From NCBI GenBank assembly GCA_963826075.1, contig CAWGVQ010000007.1, forward strand, positions 318,858 through 358,857: a DNA stretch of 40,000 nucleotides, in the 5' to 3' direction. The notes beneath the pieces were generated by a model, which ran no database searches, was not told the DNA's origin, and saw nothing but the letters and a program-made list of their open reading frames with translations. This stretch comes from an uncultured Chloroflexia bacterium. GTDB taxonomy: Bacteria > Chloroflexota > Ktedonobacteria > Ktedonobacterales > JADMIN01. How positions within the stretch are numbered: position 1 is the first letter of the stretch; every line of letters starts with the position of its first letter. The position numbers and the translations under genes are program-made. Below, one piece after another: positions 2,161 to 16,467 of the stretch.

Positions 2161-2256
2161 GGGGAACGAAAAACCCAGGCGACAAGCAGACTTGTGACCT
2201 GGGCGTGTACTGGAGTGCGGGCTCCTCGGAGGGGATTCGAACCTCTAACCTTGCGG
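2161..2256 (-). repeat. distal att repeat: displaced 3' fragment of tRNA-Asn (2222-2256) plus its native terminator
   Basis: Aligns without gaps to 16335-16430, 88/96 identical. 2216-2256 is a 41-bp perfect match to 16390-16430. The match stops exactly in the anticodon-stem 3' strand of the tRNA. Confidence 0.88.
2169..2203 (-). terminator. rho-independent terminator of the original tRNA-Asn locus
   Basis: On the minus strand the stem is cccaggtcacaag/cttgtcgcctggg (11 Watson-Crick pairs plus a 2-nt internal mismatch, 4-nt loop), followed by TTTTT. Confidence 0.6.
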
Positions 2257-2432
2257 GTAGCTTGCTGTGCAAGCCCTGAATTTAACGGGGTTTGTGGTTA
2301 TTTTGCCCTGATCTGGGAGTGCTACCTGGTAACCAGTTACTTTTCAGTATACGCCCGCAACCTTTCAACAAGCAGGTAGACATTACCAGTGCAAAGCAAC
2401 CTAACGATAATCAGAAAGGAACCGGGTGAACC

Positions 2433-2888
2433 ATGAATTACTTCCAAATTACCGCGAAGGTCGAAGAAGTGAACGAGTCTTCGTACACGGTGCAGTCAAC
2501 GGGTGAGATCGTCACCAAAGTGCAGCTCTCGCTGGTCGTTCCCAGCATGCACGATCGAATATTGTGCGAGCTACCGCTAGACAAGTCTCCAAAAGCGGAT
2601 ATCCTCGACCAGTGGGAATTAGACGAGTCCTGGGTGGTGGTCTCAGCCGAAGGCATGCGGGCGTTGGCCTTTGAGCGCAGCAACGCCCGCGCTGGAGAGA
2701 AACCGGTAGGTGCGCTGGTCGTCTTCCAGGGAGTTGAGGCACGCGAGGCGACCGCCGACGAGCGCAAGGAATTGCAGCAAGCCCGAAAAGCTCAGAAGGT
2801 CCAAGCCAAACAGCGGAGGGCCGCTCGCCAGGCAGAGAAGAAGACCCCGAAAGATGCTGCACCTACAGCTACCCAGCACTCCGCCTAG
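2433..2888 (+). CDS. hypothetical protein with a Lys/Arg-rich C-terminal tail (possible nucleic-acid binding)
   Basis: 151-aa ORF preceded by AAAGGAA 12 nt upstream. The C-terminal tail is KELQQARKAQKVQAKQRRAARQAEKK. I recognise no family. Confidence 0.6.
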   Translation: MNYFQITAKVEEVNESSYTVQSTGEIVTKVQLSLVVPSMHDRILCELPLDKSPKADILDQWELDESWVVVSAEGMRALAFERSNARAGEKPVGALVVFQGVEAREATADERKELQQARKAQKVQAKQRRAARQAEKKTPKDAAPTATQHSA

Positions 2889-3427
2889 ATGTCGCTCTGT
2901 TGTCGGTTGACGTAAAAAAGCGGCCCCGGCTCGAGCAGGCGATGGACAATCAATGGGACAAAGGCAATGATGACCAGTGGGACTAGCTGCGGAAGAGGGC
3001 GCCAGATAACCGCCTCAAGGACACAAAAGAGCGACAGCCATACGTTTGCCCATGTCCTAGTCCACCTGAACAAGCGGGGTCGTAGTGATAGCACGATGAT
3101 ACGCGTCGACGGCAGAGGCCTCCGGGCTTGCAATATGCCAATCAGCGCGGTATCTGCAAAAAGAACTGCCAGCGAGCCAACGGTCACTCGCGAGAGAAAG
3201 AAGGCTAGGTACAAGGGCTGCCTGTCTGAGTAGTTCGGCTCAGCCATGACACACGCAAGTGCACCAATCAGACTCGTGATGGTGATGGCCAAACAGATGA
3301 CTGCAACCCACACGCGGACGCCCATCCAACACCGACCACCAGGACGTATGAGTGTTGGCCCATCAGGTTGCTGGAGCATGACGCTACGCACTCCCTTCGG
3401 TCTCTCACGAGCTAGTTCGTCGGGCAA
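2885..3427 (-). CDS. hypothetical multi-pass membrane protein
   Basis: 180-aa ORF with a TTG start and AGGTGA just upstream. It has about 4 hydrophobic segments. Its stop overlaps the stop of 2433..2888 in the tetranucleotide CTAG (2885-2888). Confidence 0.5.
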   Translation of the reverse strand: MPDELARERPKGVRSVMLQQPDGPTLIRPGGRCWMGVRVWVAVICLAITITSLIGALACVMAEPNYSDRQPLYLAFFLSRVTVGSLAVLFADTALIGILQARRPLPSTRIIVLSLRPRLFRWTRTWANVWLSLFCVLEAVIWRPLPQLVPLVIIAFVPLIVHRLLEPGPLFYVNRQQSDI

Positions 3428-3467
3428 GTTTCACCTGACTATCAGTATACCCGCCAAGGCAACGGCA

Positions 3468-3485
3468 GTGTGAATGGGGTCACAC
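3468..3485. promoter_or_regulatory. perfect palindrome GTGTGA-N6-TCACAC (CRP/FNR-type half sites)
   Basis: The sequence gtgtgaatggggtcacac lies in the 99-bp divergent intergenic region between 2885..3427(-) and 3527..4468(+). Confidence 0.45.
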
Positions 3486-3526
3486 CACTGGCGGCGATAA
3501 TCCCGAGCTGAAAGGAGAGGATACAC

Positions 3527-4468
3527 ATGGCACGAATCACACATACGGCGAGCGTCGGCCCTGCAAGCCAGGCACACATTTCTGTGGTCGATCGGCTCGA
3601 ATATTTCCTGCGGTCGCGAGCATCGAAGGTCGTTGTGCTGGCGCTGGTTGCCAACACGATGGTCGCCCAGCTGCTCTACAACTCTGCCGGCCAGCTGGTG
3701 CTCGGGGATGGCGTCTTGCTGGGCTATCTCATCATCTCGGCATGCTGCTCGACGGTGGCGTTTGCCCTCTTCGAGGTGAGCACCATCTTTCAACTCCACG
3801 ACCTGATGAGCTTGGACAGCTCCATCAAGACCGAGATTGGCGCGGAGACGCTCATCAAACGGGGCTACTTTGTTTTAGGCGTCTCCTCGGTGATCAACTT
3901 CCTCTCGGTGCTCTACTTCTTGGCACTGGCCTGGCACAGCACCACCGGACATTCTGCTGCGTTCCCGCTGGATAACCTGCCCTCGCCCTGGAACTGGCTC
4001 TACTATGCGGTCCATGCCAGCGCCTACACCGCGGTCTTGTTCCTGGCAGGCATCTTCGGAGAGCGGCCCAAGAGTGGCAAAGAGGTGATTCTGGCCACCC
4101 AGCGGGACTTGGAGCAGCAAGCGCTGGAACGCTGGCGAATGCAGAAGGAAGCACAGATTGAGGACATGATGCACCGAGGAATCCCACTCGGTGCCGTGGC
4201 GGCGGCGCTGGCCAGCCCTGAGACCGCCGAGCGGATTGCCGTCTTGGAAGCCGCTACGACGGGCACCATGTCTGCCCTTGATGCCGCTCGGCTCAACGTC
4301 CAGCGGGCTGGGCAGGATTTGACATTGCTTGATGGGCTGCGCGCGGTCGGGGAGGCTCTGCCAGCGCACGATACTCGATCGGCGAATACCGATGAGGAGT
4401 TCGAAGAGCCGGAGAAGGAGGTAGCCGTCAATGGGAAGAGCCCTTTGCCCCTGGCTCGCCGCCGGTAG
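3527..4468 (+). CDS. hypothetical membrane protein: N-terminal ~4 TM segments, C-terminal Ala/Glu-rich helical region
   Basis: 313-aa ORF with a strong RBS (AAAGGAGAGG) 6 nt upstream of the ATG. Hydrophobic segments fall within residues ~35-190. Confidence 0.65.
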   Translation: MARITHTASVGPASQAHISVVDRLEYFLRSRASKVVVLALVANTMVAQLLYNSAGQLVLGDGVLLGYLIISACCSTVAFALFEVSTIFQLHDLMSLDSSIKTEIGAETLIKRGYFVLGVSSVINFLSVLYFLALAWHSTTGHSAAFPLDNLPSPWNWLYYAVHASAYTAVLFLAGIFGERPKSGKEVILATQRDLEQQALERWRMQKEAQIEDMMHRGIPLGAVAAALASPETAERIAVLEAATTGTMSALDAARLNVQRAGQDLTLLDGLRAVGEALPAHDTRSANTDEEFEEPEKEVAVNGKSPLPLARRR

Positions 4469-4494
4469 CTCCAGCAGGACTTCCTCCGGCGGCA

Positions 4495-4644
4495 ATGCAG
4501 CTGGTCGTGGCGTTGACCGATCAGCTGCCACAGGCACAGGGGCGCACCTGGACGGAGGCGGACTATGCCATTCGTGATGCACGCCTGCAGGCACTGGGCC
4601 TCGTCTCAGCCTACAGAACGCAGATGGAACCGGCAAAAACATGA
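4495..4644 (+). CDS. possible small ORF (49 aa), below the ORF-track cutoff
   Basis: My translation is MQLVVALTDQLPQAQGRTWTEADYAIRDARLQALGLVSAYRTQMEPAKT. It fills the gap between 4468 and 4646. The RBS is weak. Confidence 0.25.
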   Translation: MQLVVALTDQLPQAQGRTWTEADYAIRDARLQALGLVSAYRTQMEPAKT

Positions 4645-4645
4645 C

Positions 4646-5074
4646 TCACGGCAGGCTCGGGCCCTGCAGAAACTGGACAGGTGTTCGGATGGGGATGCTG
4701 TCATACCGTCCCATGGAGAGCAAGTCACTATCCCCACTGACGATGACGCTCGCGCCGCCACTCACTGCCAGCTCGAGGACAAAATTGTCTTTGGGGTCGC
4801 GCACCACGTGCAGTTGCACGGTGATCGTAGTCAATGTTCCTACCGTGGTGAGCAGGTTGACGAACTGTACGCGCTGGGACGGGCTGGCATACTGGTCGAA
4901 CTTTGGGTACTGCAGCACGCTATACAGCTCGCGGAGCAACGGCAGCGAGATGAGGAGTTTGCCGTGGTCAAGAGCGAAGTCAACTGCCCGTCGAGATGTC
5001 GAGGTCGGAATGAGGAAGGCGCTGATGAGCACGTTGGTGTCAAAGACGGCGCGCACCTCAGACCTGAGCGTCAT
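4646..5074 (-). CDS. PIN-domain toxin (TIGR00305 / PIN_3-like)
   Basis: 142 aa. It has AVFDTNVLISAF near the N-terminus and RDPKDNFVLELAVSGGASVIVSGDSDLL near the C-terminus, the acidic-residue pattern of this PIN family. Confidence 0.85.
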   Translation of the reverse strand: MTLRSEVRAVFDTNVLISAFLIPTSTSRRAVDFALDHGKLLISLPLLRELYSVLQYPKFDQYASPSQRVQFVNLLTTVGTLTTITVQLHVVRDPKDNFVLELAVSGGASVIVSGDSDLLSMGRYDSIPIRTPVQFLQGPSLP

Positions 5075-5328
5075 CGTGGCTCGTTCGTGGGGTGCGCTTC
5101 CTCGGCCTCCCGCAGAAGTTCCTGCAGCCGCTCTTCGGTCAAGCCGCAGTCTTCAGCCTGCTTGCCGACGGTGTCCATCAGCTCACGCAAGGACTGCCGG
5201 CTCGTTGCGGCCTCCAAGAGGTGCAGACTCACCAGCGCTTCCAGTTTGCGCCGCATCTCAGGAGTTGCCTCCTTGAAGACACGCGCTGCTGCTTCATCCA
5301 ATTCCAATGTGACGGGTTCCGTCGCCAT
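5071..5328 (-). CDS. cognate antitoxin (small acidic helical protein)
   Basis: 85-aa ORF immediately upstream of the PIN gene, with an ATGA start/stop overlap at 5071-5074. Confidence 0.7.
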   Translation of the reverse strand: MATEPVTLELDEAAARVFKEATPEMRRKLEALVSLHLLEAATSRQSLRELMDTVGKQAEDCGLTEERLQELLREAEEAHPTNEPR

Positions 5329-5680
5329 ACGCTTTGCTCTCTCTCACCACTCTACCAATCCACCTCCAGTATGCCACATCGGGATGCTGCGGTGGGCGCC
5401 GAGTCCAGGCCTCCGGTGCGGTGCGGCCAGCCCCGACCGGCTCGAGACCCGGCAAAGCGGCCGCGACGAGGGGCCCGGTCAAGACTGCCGCGCAGCGGCA
5501 CCCCGGAGCGGAGCGGAGGGGTTTAGCCTTGACTGGGAGCGGAGCGGCGCTAGGGTCGAAGAGAGTCGGGCGGGGCTGGGGCCGAGCCACAGAGGCAGCA
5601 CCTCGGCCACGGCAGCGCAGAGGGCGCCGAGGGAGGCAGCAAGGCGGCCCCGTTCCATTCTGGAGAAAGGAGGCAACACC

Positions 5681-6073: not shown

Positions 6074-7648
6074 ATGCCACTTGAGGAACACCTTCGGGCA
6101 CTCACCCAGTTCGTGGACACGTGCCCAACAATACATCGCCCGCGTGAGGCACACGAGGGTTGGGTGGACGACGCCCTCCGGATCCTCATGGCTGGGGTAG
6201 ATACCGTGCATCTGAGCTTTGACGTCGAAGTGAGTGAAGCGATGTTCCAGTACCTCGTAGGGGAGCAGCAGCAGGCGCGGCTGGCTCAGCAGCAGCGCAA
6301 CGCTGCCTACTGCTCCGAATGGCTCAATGCCCGTGTCGCACCTACCGGCGTCAAAGGCTATGCGATCCTCATCGATCGGGAGGAGTGGTCGATCAAGGTG
6401 GCCTACGACAATCCCACCCGTCCACCGATCTTTGTTGAGCTCCGTTCTCTTGCCTTGCACACTCATCCGGAAAAGGTGCTGGGGGCTTGTGAAGATGCCT
6501 GCACCTTCATTCGGGACGTCCTGTTGGCTGACCGCTCGGACGAGTTGCGTACTCAGGTGAAGCTGGGCAACGAAAAGCTCTCGCGACTGGATCTGCACGT
6601 GGATTACCAGGGGGGCTGGCATCCGGATCTCTCGGAGCAGGAACGCCGCCAGTTCATCAAACCGGGACACGCCAAACTGAATGGCCACCTGGAGGGAGAT
6701 CGCTGCACGGGCTACGTTCTGGGCAAACGACGGATTGTCGCCCGGATCTACAACAAGACGATTCAGGCCAAAGAGCACCAACTGGACTGGTACTTCACCT
6801 TGCTCGAGCAGCAAGCTGGAGACCGCTACAACCCCGATCAGGATGTGTGGCGCCTGGAGTTTGAGCTCAAACGGGAGGGAGTGCAAGGGTTTTGTCTCTA
6901 CACCAAACCGGAGGTGAGTGACCCAGAGGATATCATTGACGCGGAGCTCGAGGCCGAAGACTTGCCTACCACCGGAACGATCCAGAAGGCACTCTACTGG
7001 GCACCGCATCTGATCCACTATCTGATGACGCGCTGGTTCCGTCTGGTTGTCCCAAGCGAGGATACCAACCGGGCAAGATGGGCAACCCATCCTACCTGGC
7101 TTGCGCTCAAAGAGGGCTTTGCTGCCGCGATGACGGCCCCAGCGCTCTCCCAGGAACAAAGCCTGCTGGTGCGTGCGCAGCGGCACACAGGCTATAGTCG
7201 GCTCATCAATCGGATGGCGGTGGGCATTGCCAGTGCTGCCGAATTGCTCCTGGACACGGATCCGTGCTCGGTTCTGCCAGCGTTTGTCGCGAACGTGGAG
7301 CAGCTGGCGGCGCAGATTGTCGCCAAACAGGAGGAGAAGCGCAGGCAACTGAAGGGGGAATCTCCCTATGACGCCCGAAGACGGCGCCATTTTCAGGACG
7401 TGCAGCATCTCGCGGCGATGGCACTTGGCGTCTTGACCCAAGCAGGGGTACTCAAGGCGGAGTTGCCGCGAGTGGCTTGTATTGGGGATGTGCTAGCTGT
7501 TCTGGAACCTGATCTCGAGCAAATCGCCAATGCCAAAGGGGGCATCGGGCAGGTGCTCTACGACAAGTGGTGCAAAACCTATAAAGTCGTGCCACCACGC
7601 GGAATGTTCACCATGCATGTGCCTCGGCAGAAGGCCCAGGCGGCCTGA
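6074..7648 (+). CDS. Rep_trans-family rolling-circle replication initiator / MOB_T-like relaxase
   Basis: 524 aa. Ordered motifs are LSRLDLHVDYQGG, TGYVLGKRRIVARIYNKTIQAKE and VWRLEFELKREG. These match the Rep_trans (PF02486) pattern RxDxxxD ... G ... R.YdK ... RxExEl as I remember it. Confidence 0.8.
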   Translation: MPLEEHLRALTQFVDTCPTIHRPREAHEGWVDDALRILMAGVDTVHLSFDVEVSEAMFQYLVGEQQQARLAQQQRNAAYCSEWLNARVAPTGVKGYAILIDREEWSIKVAYDNPTRPPIFVELRSLALHTHPEKVLGACEDACTFIRDVLLADRSDELRTQVKLGNEKLSRLDLHVDYQGGWHPDLSEQERRQFIKPGHAKLNGHLEGDRCTGYVLGKRRIVARIYNKTIQAKEHQLDWYFTLLEQQAGDRYNPDQDVWRLEFELKREGVQGFCLYTKPEVSDPEDIIDAELEAEDLPTTGTIQKALYWAPHLIHYLMTRWFRLVVPSEDTNRARWATHPTWLALKEGFAAAMTAPALSQEQSLLVRAQRHTGYSRLINRMAVGIASAAELLLDTDPCSVLPAFVANVEQLAAQIVAKQEEKRRQLKGESPYDARRRRHFQDVQHLAAMALGVLTQAGVLKAELPRVACIGDVLAVLEPDLEQIANAKGGIGQVLYDKWCKTYKVVPPRGMFTMHVPRQKAQAA

Positions 7649-7867: not shown

Positions 7868-9150
7868 GCGTTGTTGGCAGAGCAGCCAGTCAGCCAGCAA
7901 GATGAAGCTGAGCCCGCCATCAGTGTGGAGTCGATGAGCACAAGCCGCGAAGTCGGCTGCCGATCATTCGAGTTGGTTATCGAGAACGTCGTCAGGAACT
8001 TCCCCTGATTTCCTAAGGGATACACCACCTGCCCTATGCCATTAGGCTCTAACGTATCATTCGGATCGAGACCAACGGCATTGGCATACGCGGCTTTCGT
8101 CACATAGTTCACCAGATTCAATGGCAAGAGCTGCTGGGGATCATCACCCATGGAGGTCACTAGCCAATCACCTGACACCGCCAGAATGCCGCCCATCGTC
8201 GATGGCGACAGGCCGGTGCCCCTCACGGTACCAGTGGCCACATCCTGGATCACATAATCCCCTGATGGGTCCGTTGCGGGCGGAGTAATCGTCAGGATGT
8301 CGTGAGGTCCGACCCAGTCCAGCGGTATGCCTATTACCGCGGGGAGCTGTATTGGGAGCTGGAGCACCTGGTTGCCCACCAGCATCATGATCTGCATCTT
8401 GCCCAGCAGCAGGAACAATATCTGCCCATCGGGAGAGTTGAAGACCGTTCCTTGCGGTGCCTCAGGGTCGTCGTCGCTGGCCAGTTGATAGAGGAATAGC
8501 GGAACGCCACCGGCGGGGTCGACAGCATACAGCTGGCTGCCATATCCGCCGGTAGTGTAGATGGCTCGATTATTCTGCCAGCCCATAAAGACGCCCTGTG
8601 GTGCCAGTATCCGCGCTGGTCCTCCGGTGCGCGGGACGATCTCGGCACCATTGTTATCTCCATTGCTCGTCATAACAGTACCGCCGATCCATCGGCCATC
8701 TTGAGAGAGCTCAGGGTAGCTGATATCCAGCCCGGTAGACTGGACTCGCCCCTGCCGGTCCATAATGAGGAGTAAGCCAGAACTCCCAGAGATAAAGAGC
8801 CCAGACGAGTCCGGAAGCCAGCTAATAGGAGGCCCAGCCCCAAGTTCGCCTGCTGGGAGAGTATACGGGGTACCTTGCTCCTGTCCCGCCAGCGTATACA
8901 GCTTGATCGTTGAGCCATATTCCGCCGCGAGCAAGGTAGCATCAGGCGACGGGTACAGGTCCCCCGTTGGTGGAATAGGTAGTGTCTCAGTGCTGGACTG
9001 AGGAGTTGCCGTCGGCCGAAGCACAACGGGAGTCGCGGTAGGGGTAGTCACCCTCGCTGAGGAGGGGGCGCAGGCCGCCATGAATCCGCAGAGCAGGAAA
9101 CTGGCGAGCGCCACCATCAGCACTGGTGAGCGATAGCCCGTATCGAACAT
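7861..9150 (-). CDS. secreted lipoprotein, TolB-like beta-propeller
   Basis: I place the start at the ATG at 9150 (AAGGAGG 6 nt upstream), not the ORF-track start at 9324. The signal peptide and lipobox read VLMVALASFLLCGFMAAC. A Thr/Pro linker follows, then repeats such as ISWLPDSSGLFISG and ELSQDGRWIGG. Confidence 0.75.
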   Translation of the reverse strand: MFDTGYRSPVLMVALASFLLCGFMAACAPSSARVTTPTATPVVLRPTATPQSSTETLPIPPTGDLYPSPDATLLAAEYGSTIKLYTLAGQEQGTPYTLPAGELGAGPPISWLPDSSGLFISGSSGLLLIMDRQGRVQSTGLDISYPELSQDGRWIGGTVMTSNGDNNGAEIVPRTGGPARILAPQGVFMGWQNNRAIYTTGGYGSQLYAVDPAGGVPLFLYQLASDDDPEAPQGTVFNSPDGQILFLLLGKMQIMMLVGNQVLQLPIQLPAVIGIPLDWVGPHDILTITPPATDPSGDYVIQDVATGTVRGTGLSPSTMGGILAVSGDWLVTSMGDDPQQLLPLNLVNYVTKAAYANAVGLDPNDTLEPNGIGQVVYPLGNQGKFLTTFSITNSNDRQPTSRLVLIDSTLMAGSASSCWLTGCSANNAK

Positions 9151-9434
9151 GTGGCCTCCTTGGTGATGTGTCCGCTCGCTAAAATTAGCGGCTATCCTGA
9201 CCGGTGATAAAGCCAGATTGGCCTGGCGACACGGAAGGAGCGGTGTGCGTGGTTGACTGCTATGATCGTCTGCACTTGGTTTCTGGTAGGGTGTAACTCC
9301 TAGTAAGAGATGAGCACATCCCACTGTGATAGTGAATAGCAGGTGCGAATAGTCTACTGGAGAAAGCAGCAGGGCGCAATACCTAGTGATCCGTTTCCAG
9401 CTGGCAACTACGTATGAGAGGGCCTCCCTACCAC

Positions 9435-15148: not shown

Positions 15149-15176
15149 TTGACATGGGAATATCAGCGTGTATAAT
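15149..15176 (+). promoter_or_regulatory. integrase promoter TTGACA-N16-TATAAT
   Basis: Both hexamers match the sigma-70 consensus exactly (15149-15154 and 15171-15176). GGAGG at 15184-15188 and the ATG at 15195 follow. Confidence 0.6.
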
Positions 15177-15194
15177 ACAAATTGGAGGGTAGCT

Positions 15195-16217
15195 ATGAAG
15201 ATGGCAGCCGCAATCCGGGGTTTTTTGATGGACTGGGAGCTGCGTGAGCATTCGCCAAACACGATTCGACTCTATCGGTCGTGTTTGAACGTATTTGCTC
15301 GCTGGCTCGAAGAACAGGGCATTACGACGGTGGAGGACGTCACGATTGCCCATCTACGCGCATTTATGCTCTATACCCAACAACGCCCAGTCGATGCAGT
15401 GAACCCGAGCCATCCCACCGCAACAGATGGGCGGACGCTCAGCACAGCAACCTTGCAATCCTACGTGAAGACCATCAAAGTACTGTTTCATTGGCTCGTA
15501 GACGAGGAGGTGATTACGCGCAATCCAGCGCTCCGCTTACATAAGCCCGTCGAGGCAAGGCGGGTGGTGGTGACATTCTCGCATCAGCACCTCAACGCCA
15601 TGTTTGAGGCCTGCGATCTCACCAACTCCCTGGGCTTTCGTGACTACGTCTTGATGCTCGTCCTACTCGATACCGGCCTTCGGGTGAGCGAACTCTGCGG
15701 CATCCAGCTGGATGATGTCCATGAGGCCTACATCAAGGTCTTGGGCAAGGGGCGTAAAGAGCGCGAGGTTGGCGTCAGTCCAACCACCGCCAAGTTCATC
15801 TGGAAATACATCCACCTGCACCGCGTGACAGCGGATGACGCGGTAACGGCCCTGTTCACAAACTTTGCGGGCCACGGACTGCGACCCTCCGGGGTCGAAA
15901 AGCTCATCAGGCGGGTGAAAGATGCCGCTGGCATTACCGACATTCCGGTGACGGCGCACAAGTTCCGTCATACTTTCGCCCGCACGTGGCTGGAACGGGG
16001 CGGTGAGGTCTACAGCCTCTCGAGGCTCATGGGCCACTCGAGTGTGAAGGTCACCGAAATCTATCTGGAAGACTTCAAGAGTCGGCAGGCCCGTCTACAG
16101 CACGCGAAGTTCTCGCCAATCAGCCAACTGAAGCTCCGCCAGAAGGGGCGCGGCCGCCATACCTACAAGCGCCAGCCGCAATTTGGGGATAATGATGAGA
16201 AGCAGGAGAACGGCTAA
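15195..16217 (+). CDS. tyrosine recombinase / phage-type integrase
   Basis: The N-terminal SAM-like domain reads NTIRLYRSCLNVFARWL. The catalytic signature is GLRVSEL ... HKFRHTFA ... LMGHSSVKVTEIY (R, HxxR, H, Y). I use the ATG at 15195 because the ORF-track GTG at 15168 immediately abuts and runs through the -10 hexamer. Confidence 0.92.
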   Translation: MKMAAAIRGFLMDWELREHSPNTIRLYRSCLNVFARWLEEQGITTVEDVTIAHLRAFMLYTQQRPVDAVNPSHPTATDGRTLSTATLQSYVKTIKVLFHWLVDEEVITRNPALRLHKPVEARRVVVTFSHQHLNAMFEACDLTNSLGFRDYVLMLVLLDTGLRVSELCGIQLDDVHEAYIKVLGKGRKEREVGVSPTTAKFIWKYIHLHRVTADDAVTALFTNFAGHGLRPSGVEKLIRRVKDAAGITDIPVTAHKFRHTFARTWLERGGEVYSLSRLMGHSSVKVTEIYLEDFKSRQARLQHAKFSPISQLKLRQKGRGRHTYKRQPQFGDNDEKQENG

Positions 16218-16334: not shown

Positions 16335-16430
16335 GGGGAATGAAAAACCCAGGCGACAAACGGGTTTGTGACCTGGGTGTCTACTGGACTGCGGGCTCCT
16401 CGGAGGGGATTCGAACCTCTAACCTTGCGG
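16335..16430 (-). repeat. proximal att repeat: element-derived terminator copy plus the 3' 35 nt of the functional tRNA-Asn
   Basis: Partner of 2161-2256. The 41-bp perfect core is 16390-16430. Confidence 0.88.
16343..16377 (-). terminator. rho-independent terminator downstream of tRNA-Asn
   Basis: On the minus strand there is a hairpin cccaggtcacaaa/tttgtcgcctggg followed by TTTTT. Confidence 0.6.
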
Positions 16431-16467
16431 TTAACAGCCGCCTGCTCTACCGTTGAGCTACCGAGGA
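16396..16467 (-). tRNA. tRNA-Asn (anticodon GTT)
   Basis: Folded by hand: acceptor TCCTCGG/CCGAGGA, D arm GCTC-AACGGTA-GAGC, anticodon loop CTGTTAA, T loop TTCGAAT. The T stem has one A-C mismatch and there is a G-A at 27:43. CCA is not encoded. Confidence 0.85.

Follow-up and report, generated by a model that had tools for sequence, protein, structure and literature searches.

An SSB-like protein and a conserved membrane protein head the replication module of small integrative elements in Ktedonobacterales

We analyzed a 40,000-nucleotide stretch of the genome of an uncultured Ktedonobacterales bacterium from soil, hereafter the window (G000:C7:318858-358857, forward strand, GC ~58%), and within it a ~14.2-kb integrated element whose integrase-distal end is the site of four open reading frames (ORFs), P0001 to P0004, with no match to a described family. 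Three of these encode a predicted OB-fold protein resembling single-stranded DNA-binding proteins (SSBs) (P0001), a core membrane protein (P0003), and a small conserved protein (P0004), and together they make up the conserved leading part of the replication module in a family of small tRNA-integrating rolling-circle elements with a tyrosine integrase. The module is the lineage-restricted core of a recognizable kind of element, found solely in two families of the order Ktedonobacterales. The four ORFs of the left arm are not one module; P0002 and a nearby PIN toxin-antitoxin pair were inserted later, on the opposite strand. As a tentative functional reading, which we prefer without great confidence, P0003 may serve as a membrane-docked platform for the single-stranded replication intermediate of the element and its replication proteins.

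The element is enclosed by a direct repeat of the 3' end of tRNA-Asn. One copy (16366-16435) lies inside and beside the intact tRNA-Asn, and the other, an orphan 3' fragment of tRNA-Asn recognized by alignment to the first, is the left attachment repeat at the integrase-distal boundary (~2192..2261). A tyrosine integrase is encoded at 15168-16217. A divergent rolling-circle initiator, Rep, follows P0003 on the plus strand (6074..7648), and a PHROG profile for a replication initiation protein matches it weakly; homologues of Rep likewise sit 3' of P0003 in related elements. The initial annotation had placed the four ORFs at 2433..2888, 2885..3427, 3527..4468, and 4495..4644, and all were confirmed by ORF reading and by coding-type GC: their GC1/GC2/GC3 pattern is that of adjoining real genes, and the overlapping shadow frames do not have it. 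None of the four proteins matched Pfam, NCBIfam, PHROGs, or PADLOC at E<=0.01, in agreement with the annotation's inability to assign a family. Its observation that the element has no translocase ATPase of the FtsK/VirB4/TraG type was also borne out, by Pfam and by a Walker-A scan.

The evidence for a conserved core comes from mapping the window proteins and their variants on 12 regions of relatives and on 32 loci of species-representative genomes. Across the 32 loci, the recurrent order is (OB-position gene)-P0003-(P0004)-(AEP primase and a 388-aa gene in some)-(structured element)-(leader ORF)-Rep-(xis)-int. In 29 of them Rep lies downstream of P0003 on the same strand; of the other three, L027 is cut off by the end of its contig, and L021 and L040 gave no Rep match in the 3-8 kb taken downstream. 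Immediately 5' of P0003, 14 loci have a P0001 homologue, 11 have a second type termed OBb, and 7 have neither, such that an OB-type gene (P0001 type or OBb) holds this place in 25/32. An ORF with a Walker-A motif at a recurrent position was present in none of the 32 loci. The minimal element is 6.17 kb, has tRNA-Pro repeats at both ends, and contains only five recognized genes, namely an xis-like gene, OBb, a P0003 relative, Rep, and Int. Because of the recurrent gene order and its retention in this small element, P0003 is core rather than cargo. The initial annotation had grouped P0001 to P0003, with P0004 as a possible addition, as one left-arm module. The core genes are not peripheral; they head the replication module and persist even in the 6.2-kb element. 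The initial annotation had also taken a lack of co-occurring homologues as grounds against its reading. Homologues do co-occur strongly, but the trio is P0001-P0003-P0004, and the 180-aa P0002 is absent from the relatives examined.

P0003 is more uniform than the genes around it. Main-class P0003 proteins are 67-88% identical in comparisons of elements that give 23-46% for Rep and involve different OB gene types. Two additional classes of P0003 stand at ~40% and ~35% identity, the latter pairing with varied OB and Rep types. In one P0003 class, tblastn coordinates place the start of an AEP primase match where the P0003 gene ends. This next gene (L018:9588-10724; also L044-L048, L050, and L051) encodes an AEP-type primase (PF22548, E=1.7e-13), and the primase is followed by the 388-aa gene and then by a 775-aa Rep-like protein. 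OBb, the 110-115-aa gene that takes the place of P0001 (for example L016:12092-12439(-), L010:8492-8824, and L020:9034-9375), has a sequence pattern that appears beta-barrel-like by eye, a prediction from sequence alone; a PDB sequence-profile search with it returned nothing. Most proteins of both the P0001 and OBb types end in ..SA or ..TA.

P0001 (2433..2888, plus strand) is a 151-aa protein with a predicted OB fold and a K/R-rich C-terminal helix, here termed the OBa type. Its homologues form 472 database clusters, all of them unnamed Ktedonobacterales or Chloroflexota proteins. An AF2 model built on a 20-sequence alignment (pLDDT 77.8) has its strands and helix in the order b1-b2-b3-helix-b4-b5 and, after them, a long basic helix. 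The top Foldseek matches of this model are the OB folds of PriB, SSBs, RPA, the PolC OB domain, and HIN domains (E 2e-3 to 2e-2, probability ~1.0), and the independent aligner VIA placed bacterial SSBs and archaeal RPA at the top (Z 8.0-8.6, residues 1-113), with PriB at Z 7.5-7.8 and an overall range of Z 7.2-8.6 over the same residues. The initial annotation had proposed looking for an OB or SSB-like fold in this protein, and the model points to just such a fold, with SSB, RPA, and PriB nearest. Because the VIA Z values are modest, P0001 is filed as SSB-like by its modeled fold alone and not as a member of the SSB family. At E<=0.1 in Pfam, NCBIfam, and PHROG, its sole match was one unnamed PHROG (0.022); a PDB profile search gave nothing relevant, and the ESM Atlas gave sub-threshold leads (0.87) to DUF3577 and DUF3127.

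Relative to SSB, PriB, and archaeal RPA, the P0001 model has the same OB topology of five strands, with a helix separating strand 3 from strand 4, yet structural Z values reach only 7-9 and there is no sequence-level match to SSB or another family. The C-terminus also differs, with a long basic helix ending in ..HSA where SSB has an acidic tip that recruits partners. The aromatic and basic residues W61, W67, F80, F98, R76, R82, R86, and K90 are invariant in the P0001 family, and the gene neighbors a rolling-circle Rep in the element.

P0003 (3527..4468, plus strand) is a 313-aa membrane protein with four transmembrane (TM) helices and a helical tail, as indicated by hydropathy and AF2. At least 390 clusters of homologues at 90% identity are all unnamed, and the 162 matches among 1.84 billion 50%-representatives are mostly fragments, none of which leads to a known family. 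The AF2 model, built on 26 diverse sequences (pLDDT 70.8, pTM 0.44), features an N-terminal amphipathic helix running into TM1; TM helices at ~32-52, 61-88, 113-139, and 155-178; and a cytoplasmic part composed of a long helix (184-217) and four short helices (222-277) that form a small helical domain. The protein ends in a disordered tail with a conserved PL(P/G)L..RR, which reads PLPLARRR in the window protein. Foldseek and VIA returned generic four-helix bundles only, such as the vinculin tail and designed proteins; these matches are silent on function because they reach the level expected for any helical bundle. The ESM Atlas yielded unnamed clusters only, and a PDB sequence-profile search yielded nothing.

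Two families named by the initial annotation for this third protein gave no sequence match. DUF2637 (PF10935) had no profile match at E<=10 in P0003 or any of 26 family members, and a whole-genome search for it gave no match in the window's genome, nor in the control genomes, which makes this second search uninformative. For Spd-like proteins, tblastn against 72,556 plasmids found no sequence similarity to plasmid-borne proteins. Weak DUF742 matches did occur in four members of the P0003 family (best E 0.002, well below the cut-off), and in the member checked individually the match covers the cytoplasmic domain (E 0.047). Longer relatives carry an additional C-terminal domain that is HTH-like by eye. 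One distant relative is of this long form (470 aa, 33% identity) and lies on a tailed-phage contig with a GC content of 42% (L055, IMGVR_UViG_3300015198_000093, 7914-9326), near genes for endolysin, terminase, portal, protease, and major head protein; the gene before it encodes a helical 178-aa protein that is not OB-type.

P0004 (4495..4644, plus strand) is a conserved 49-aa protein encoded immediately 3' of P0003. The initial annotation had listed it as a possible ORF; by tblastn and coding-type GC it is a genuine small gene, with the motif GRxWTxxDYAxRDAxLxxLG. It is present at the matching position in 9/15 P0001-type (OBa) copies and in 0/11 OBb-type copies. A filamentous-phage reading of the combination of Rep, an OB protein, and small membrane proteins was considered and rejected, as there is no Zot-like ATPase and P0004 is not hydrophobic.

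The region ahead of rep contains a further conserved component, a structured element of five helices at ~5413..5566 (plus strand) detected with nhmmer and a covariance model. Its DNA is conserved far above the protein conservation of the flanking genes. Matches occur at the equivalent position in 15 related loci. The element, of ~155-200 nucleotides, is recorded in the window and in L021-L024, L027-L029, L031, L034, L037-L039, L049, and L052, always between the P0003 gene and the leader and Rep genes. In a 12-sequence MAFFT alignment, the five helices comprise 36 pairs, 17 of which show compensatory double changes. Paired cells amount to 93.7%, compared with 82.5% in shuffles (0/500), and covariation is 0.320, compared with 0.122 in shuffles (0/500) and 0.04-0.07 with the partners slid. 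The plus strand is the one that folds, since G-U cells greatly exceed A-C cells. The covariance model recovered more copies at the same position in remoter elements and a partial match in the 6.2-kb element; a search of Rfam gave no match. The structured element is a candidate for a single-strand origin or for the leader RNA of the rep operon, which fits an element that carries its own SSB-like protein.

The range of the family is narrow. P0003 is present in 10/169 genomes of the class and in 5/401 genomes sampled across the phylum, with whole-genome matches confined to two families within one order, Ktedonobacterales. Genomes that have it frequently carry several copies: G024 gave at least 12 matches, G048 gave 7, and G041 and G050 gave 4 each. 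A tblastn search of 72,556 plasmid and 50,697 phage records with P0003 gave no match at E<=1. The named database relatives of P0001 and P0003 are all proteins from Ktedonobacterales, Ktedonobacteraceae, or Chloroflexi/Chloroflexota metagenome-assembled genomes; therefore, the actinomycete setting assumed by the initial annotation is wrong, and the host is a member of Ktedonobacterales (Chloroflexota).

We propose a replication-linked platform because P0003 leads the rep operon, abuts a primase match in one class, has an SSB-like neighbor, occurs without a translocase, and has a phage-borne relative. The recurrent gene order, the minimal element, the modeled P0001 fold, the P0003 architecture with its weak DUF742 matches, and the conservation of P0003 relative to Rep also count in favor of this reading. 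Under this proposal, Rep would nick the excised circle and displace a single strand, and P0001 would coat the displaced strand, its basic C-terminal helix adding contacts to DNA or to partners. P0003 would act as an oligomeric four-pass membrane protein whose stalk and small helical domain dock the nucleoprotein and the replication proteins, so that replication and single-strand conversion could be confined to one site on the membrane. For P0004 we suggest the role of a small adaptor alongside P0001-type OB proteins. The platform might also pass DNA to a neighboring cell. The closest parallel in concept is phi29 p16.7, a membrane-anchored organizer of DNA replication. Both proteins combine a membrane anchor, a coiled coil, and a small helical domain, and both are encoded with replication genes that include an SSB. 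However, p16.7 crosses the membrane with a single TM helix, in contrast to the four TM helices and conserved polar core of P0003. No homology between the two was detected, and phi29 replication is protein-primed rather than rolling circle.

Several observations weigh against a platform role. All 12 invariant columns of the P0003 alignment fall within residues 40-171, that is, in the membrane domain, and they include the polar residues N43, Q48, E83, and N124 within TM helices; N52, S53, S127, and H163 are near-invariant. Because a mere anchor needs no invariant polar residues in its TM helices, P0003 is perhaps more than an anchor, and its conserved polar core suggests that it is a channel or an enzyme or has a specific partner in the membrane. 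The confidence of the P0003 model is moderate. The upstream gene also varies: hhalign found no profile similarity between OBb and the P0001 family, and yet another, apparently helical, upstream gene occurs in five loci of one P0003 class, this third type having no BLASTP similarity to P0001. Finally, no homology to a characterized protein supports the role, and the p16.7 comparison extends to architecture only.

The main rival to the platform is a DNA-spread or transfer pore comparable to SpdB2, in which P0003 would oligomerize in the membrane or septum of its filamentous hosts and pass DNA delivered by the OB protein to adjacent compartments or cells. SpdB2 of the Streptomyces plasmid pSVH1 has four TM helices and helical cytoplasmic domains, is conserved above all other proteins of its element family, and is also encoded by phages (PMC4447253). 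P0003 is alike in all of these respects, as it combines four TM helices with helical cytoplasmic domains, has the highest conservation in its element family, and has a phage-borne relative. The invariant polar residues within its TM helices and the patchy, multi-copy distribution expected of moving elements would suit a pore as well. However, FtsK-like TraB, the motor partner of SpdB2, is not in the element or the related loci, and G024, with its 12 or more copies, lacks any FtsK_SpoIIIE match. (This assembly is 86% complete and has no FtsK_SpoIIIE match at E<=0.001, even a chromosomal one, which is possibly an assembly gap.) The domain order is unlike that of SpdB2, whose coiled coil is N-terminal; there is no sequence similarity, and the tblastn search of plasmids and phages described above came back empty; the P0003 gene is located in a replication operon rather than a tra/spd operon; and the host belongs to another phylum. 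The tailed-phage relative also means that a role in replication or maintenance suits P0003 better than conjugation. We regard a spread pore as unlikely. A more radical variant, in which the OB-fold protein and P0003 constitute a new, ATPase-independent apparatus that exports the displaced strand or passes it across the membrane or septum of filamentous Chloroflexota, seems to us quite unlikely.

Two further explanations are more doubtful again. P0003 could be a membrane sensor or regulator whose membrane domain senses the host state and whose HTH-like cytoplasmic domain controls replication or excision. The weak DUF742 matches, the resemblance of the extra C-terminal domain of longer relatives to HTH, and the position of the gene at the head of the rep operon are in its favor, yet every domain match is far under curated cut-offs and no DNA-binding family was matched significantly. 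Moreover, the DNA targets of a regulator should vary with the divergent Rep regions, and yet P0003 keeps its high identity across them. Small membrane proteins of phages and plasmids often serve exclusion, and P0003, alone or with the OB protein, could likewise provide superinfection exclusion or immunity against related elements or phages, as its relative in a phage contig might suggest. Against such a function, exclusion among relatives is not evident in genomes with 4-7 copies or, in one case, 12 or more, there is no PADLOC match, and the retention of P0003 in the 6.2-kb element and its apparent coupling to a primase in another class fit a life-cycle function instead. We consider the sensor and the exclusion function equally improbable.

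The other genes of the left arm have a different history from the core trio. P0002 (2885..3427, minus strand) is a small accessory membrane protein with roughly four TM segments by hydropathy and a coding-type GC pattern. The full ORF is 180 aa from a TTG, and its stop codon overlaps that of P0001 in the shared CTAG, as first annotated. The TM segments and the overlap stand, but the start is probably later: the gene caller proposes 164 aa from an ATG at 3379, and the homologue-based start at M35 gives 2885-3325. Among 5.8 billion clusters there is one other homologue, 79% identical over 144 aa and starting at the equivalent of M35, and a metagenome scan for its setting found nothing. A search of five related genomes did not find P0002, its own genome has one copy, and every related element examined lacks it. 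The gap between the OB gene and P0003 is ~110-250 bp in relatives, and the ~640 bp of the window aligns to none of them. P0002 is thus probably a real but rare accessory membrane protein. Between the divergent starts of P0002 and P0003 lies an 18-bp palindrome, GTGTGA-N6-TCACAC (3468..3485, from reading the sequence). As it falls inside the ~640-bp stretch that relatives lack, any regulation by it would be particular to the window element. Upstream of P0001, a consensus scan alone marks a promoter-like site, TTACCA-17-GATAAT (2383..2411, plus strand), which is not evidence of function.

The second insertion is a toxin-antitoxin pair convergent to P0004. It consists of a 142-aa PIN-type (VapC-like) toxin (4646-5074, minus strand; PIN_3 E=1.4e-15, above the cut-off) and, by ORF position, an 85-aa antitoxin candidate upstream of it (5071-5328, minus strand), the two overlapping in ATGA. 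No such pair was found in the related loci examined. Plus-strand ORFs of 211 aa and 465 aa that follow position 4644 were rejected as shadows of the PIN pair or junk frames, given their non-coding GC pattern. The initial annotation had regarded the left-arm ORFs as the only candidates for transfer, exclusion, or defense; the pair at 4646-5328 is also a candidate for maintenance or defense.

Transposase genes also occur in related loci. In several G024 copies, IS110-family transposases are inserted between P0003 and Rep (L014:22-1551(-), L013, and L015), and in L048 an IS630-like gene is 5' of P0003. The window's own genome contains two identical remnants of ~640 bp, each joining a P0003 fragment (residues ~29-79) directly to a C-terminal fragment of Rep (G000:C19:296200-296840, equivalent to L053:8200-8840, and G000:C2, L054). 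An FtsK-like ORF of 658 aa lies ~7 kb from the C19 remnant; no link is made between the two.

Actinomycetes are known to carry small integrative rolling-circle elements that one FtsK-like protein moves, and in pSAM2 the genes are ordered rep-xis-int. The family described here resembles pSAM2-type actinomycete integrative and conjugative elements (AICEs) in being small, integrating into tRNA genes, and sharing the rep-xis-int order; it differs in having no FtsK-like transfer gene, no recognizable spd, pif, or kor, and a Chloroflexota host. It thus represents a family in another filamentous phylum with a different core: an SSB-like protein and a highly conserved polytopic membrane protein, with no motor. 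The corrected map of the element distinguishes this core trio from two inserted accessory units and adds a structured element with strong covariation, perhaps the first single-strand origin or leader of rep to be reported from this family. If P0003 organizes replication at the membrane, the phi29-type concept would reach integrative plasmids. If it moves DNA, it would represent a new transfer route, and, were the motor-free apparatus to prove true, a 6-kb element with five recognized genes could spread between cells without known conjugation machinery.

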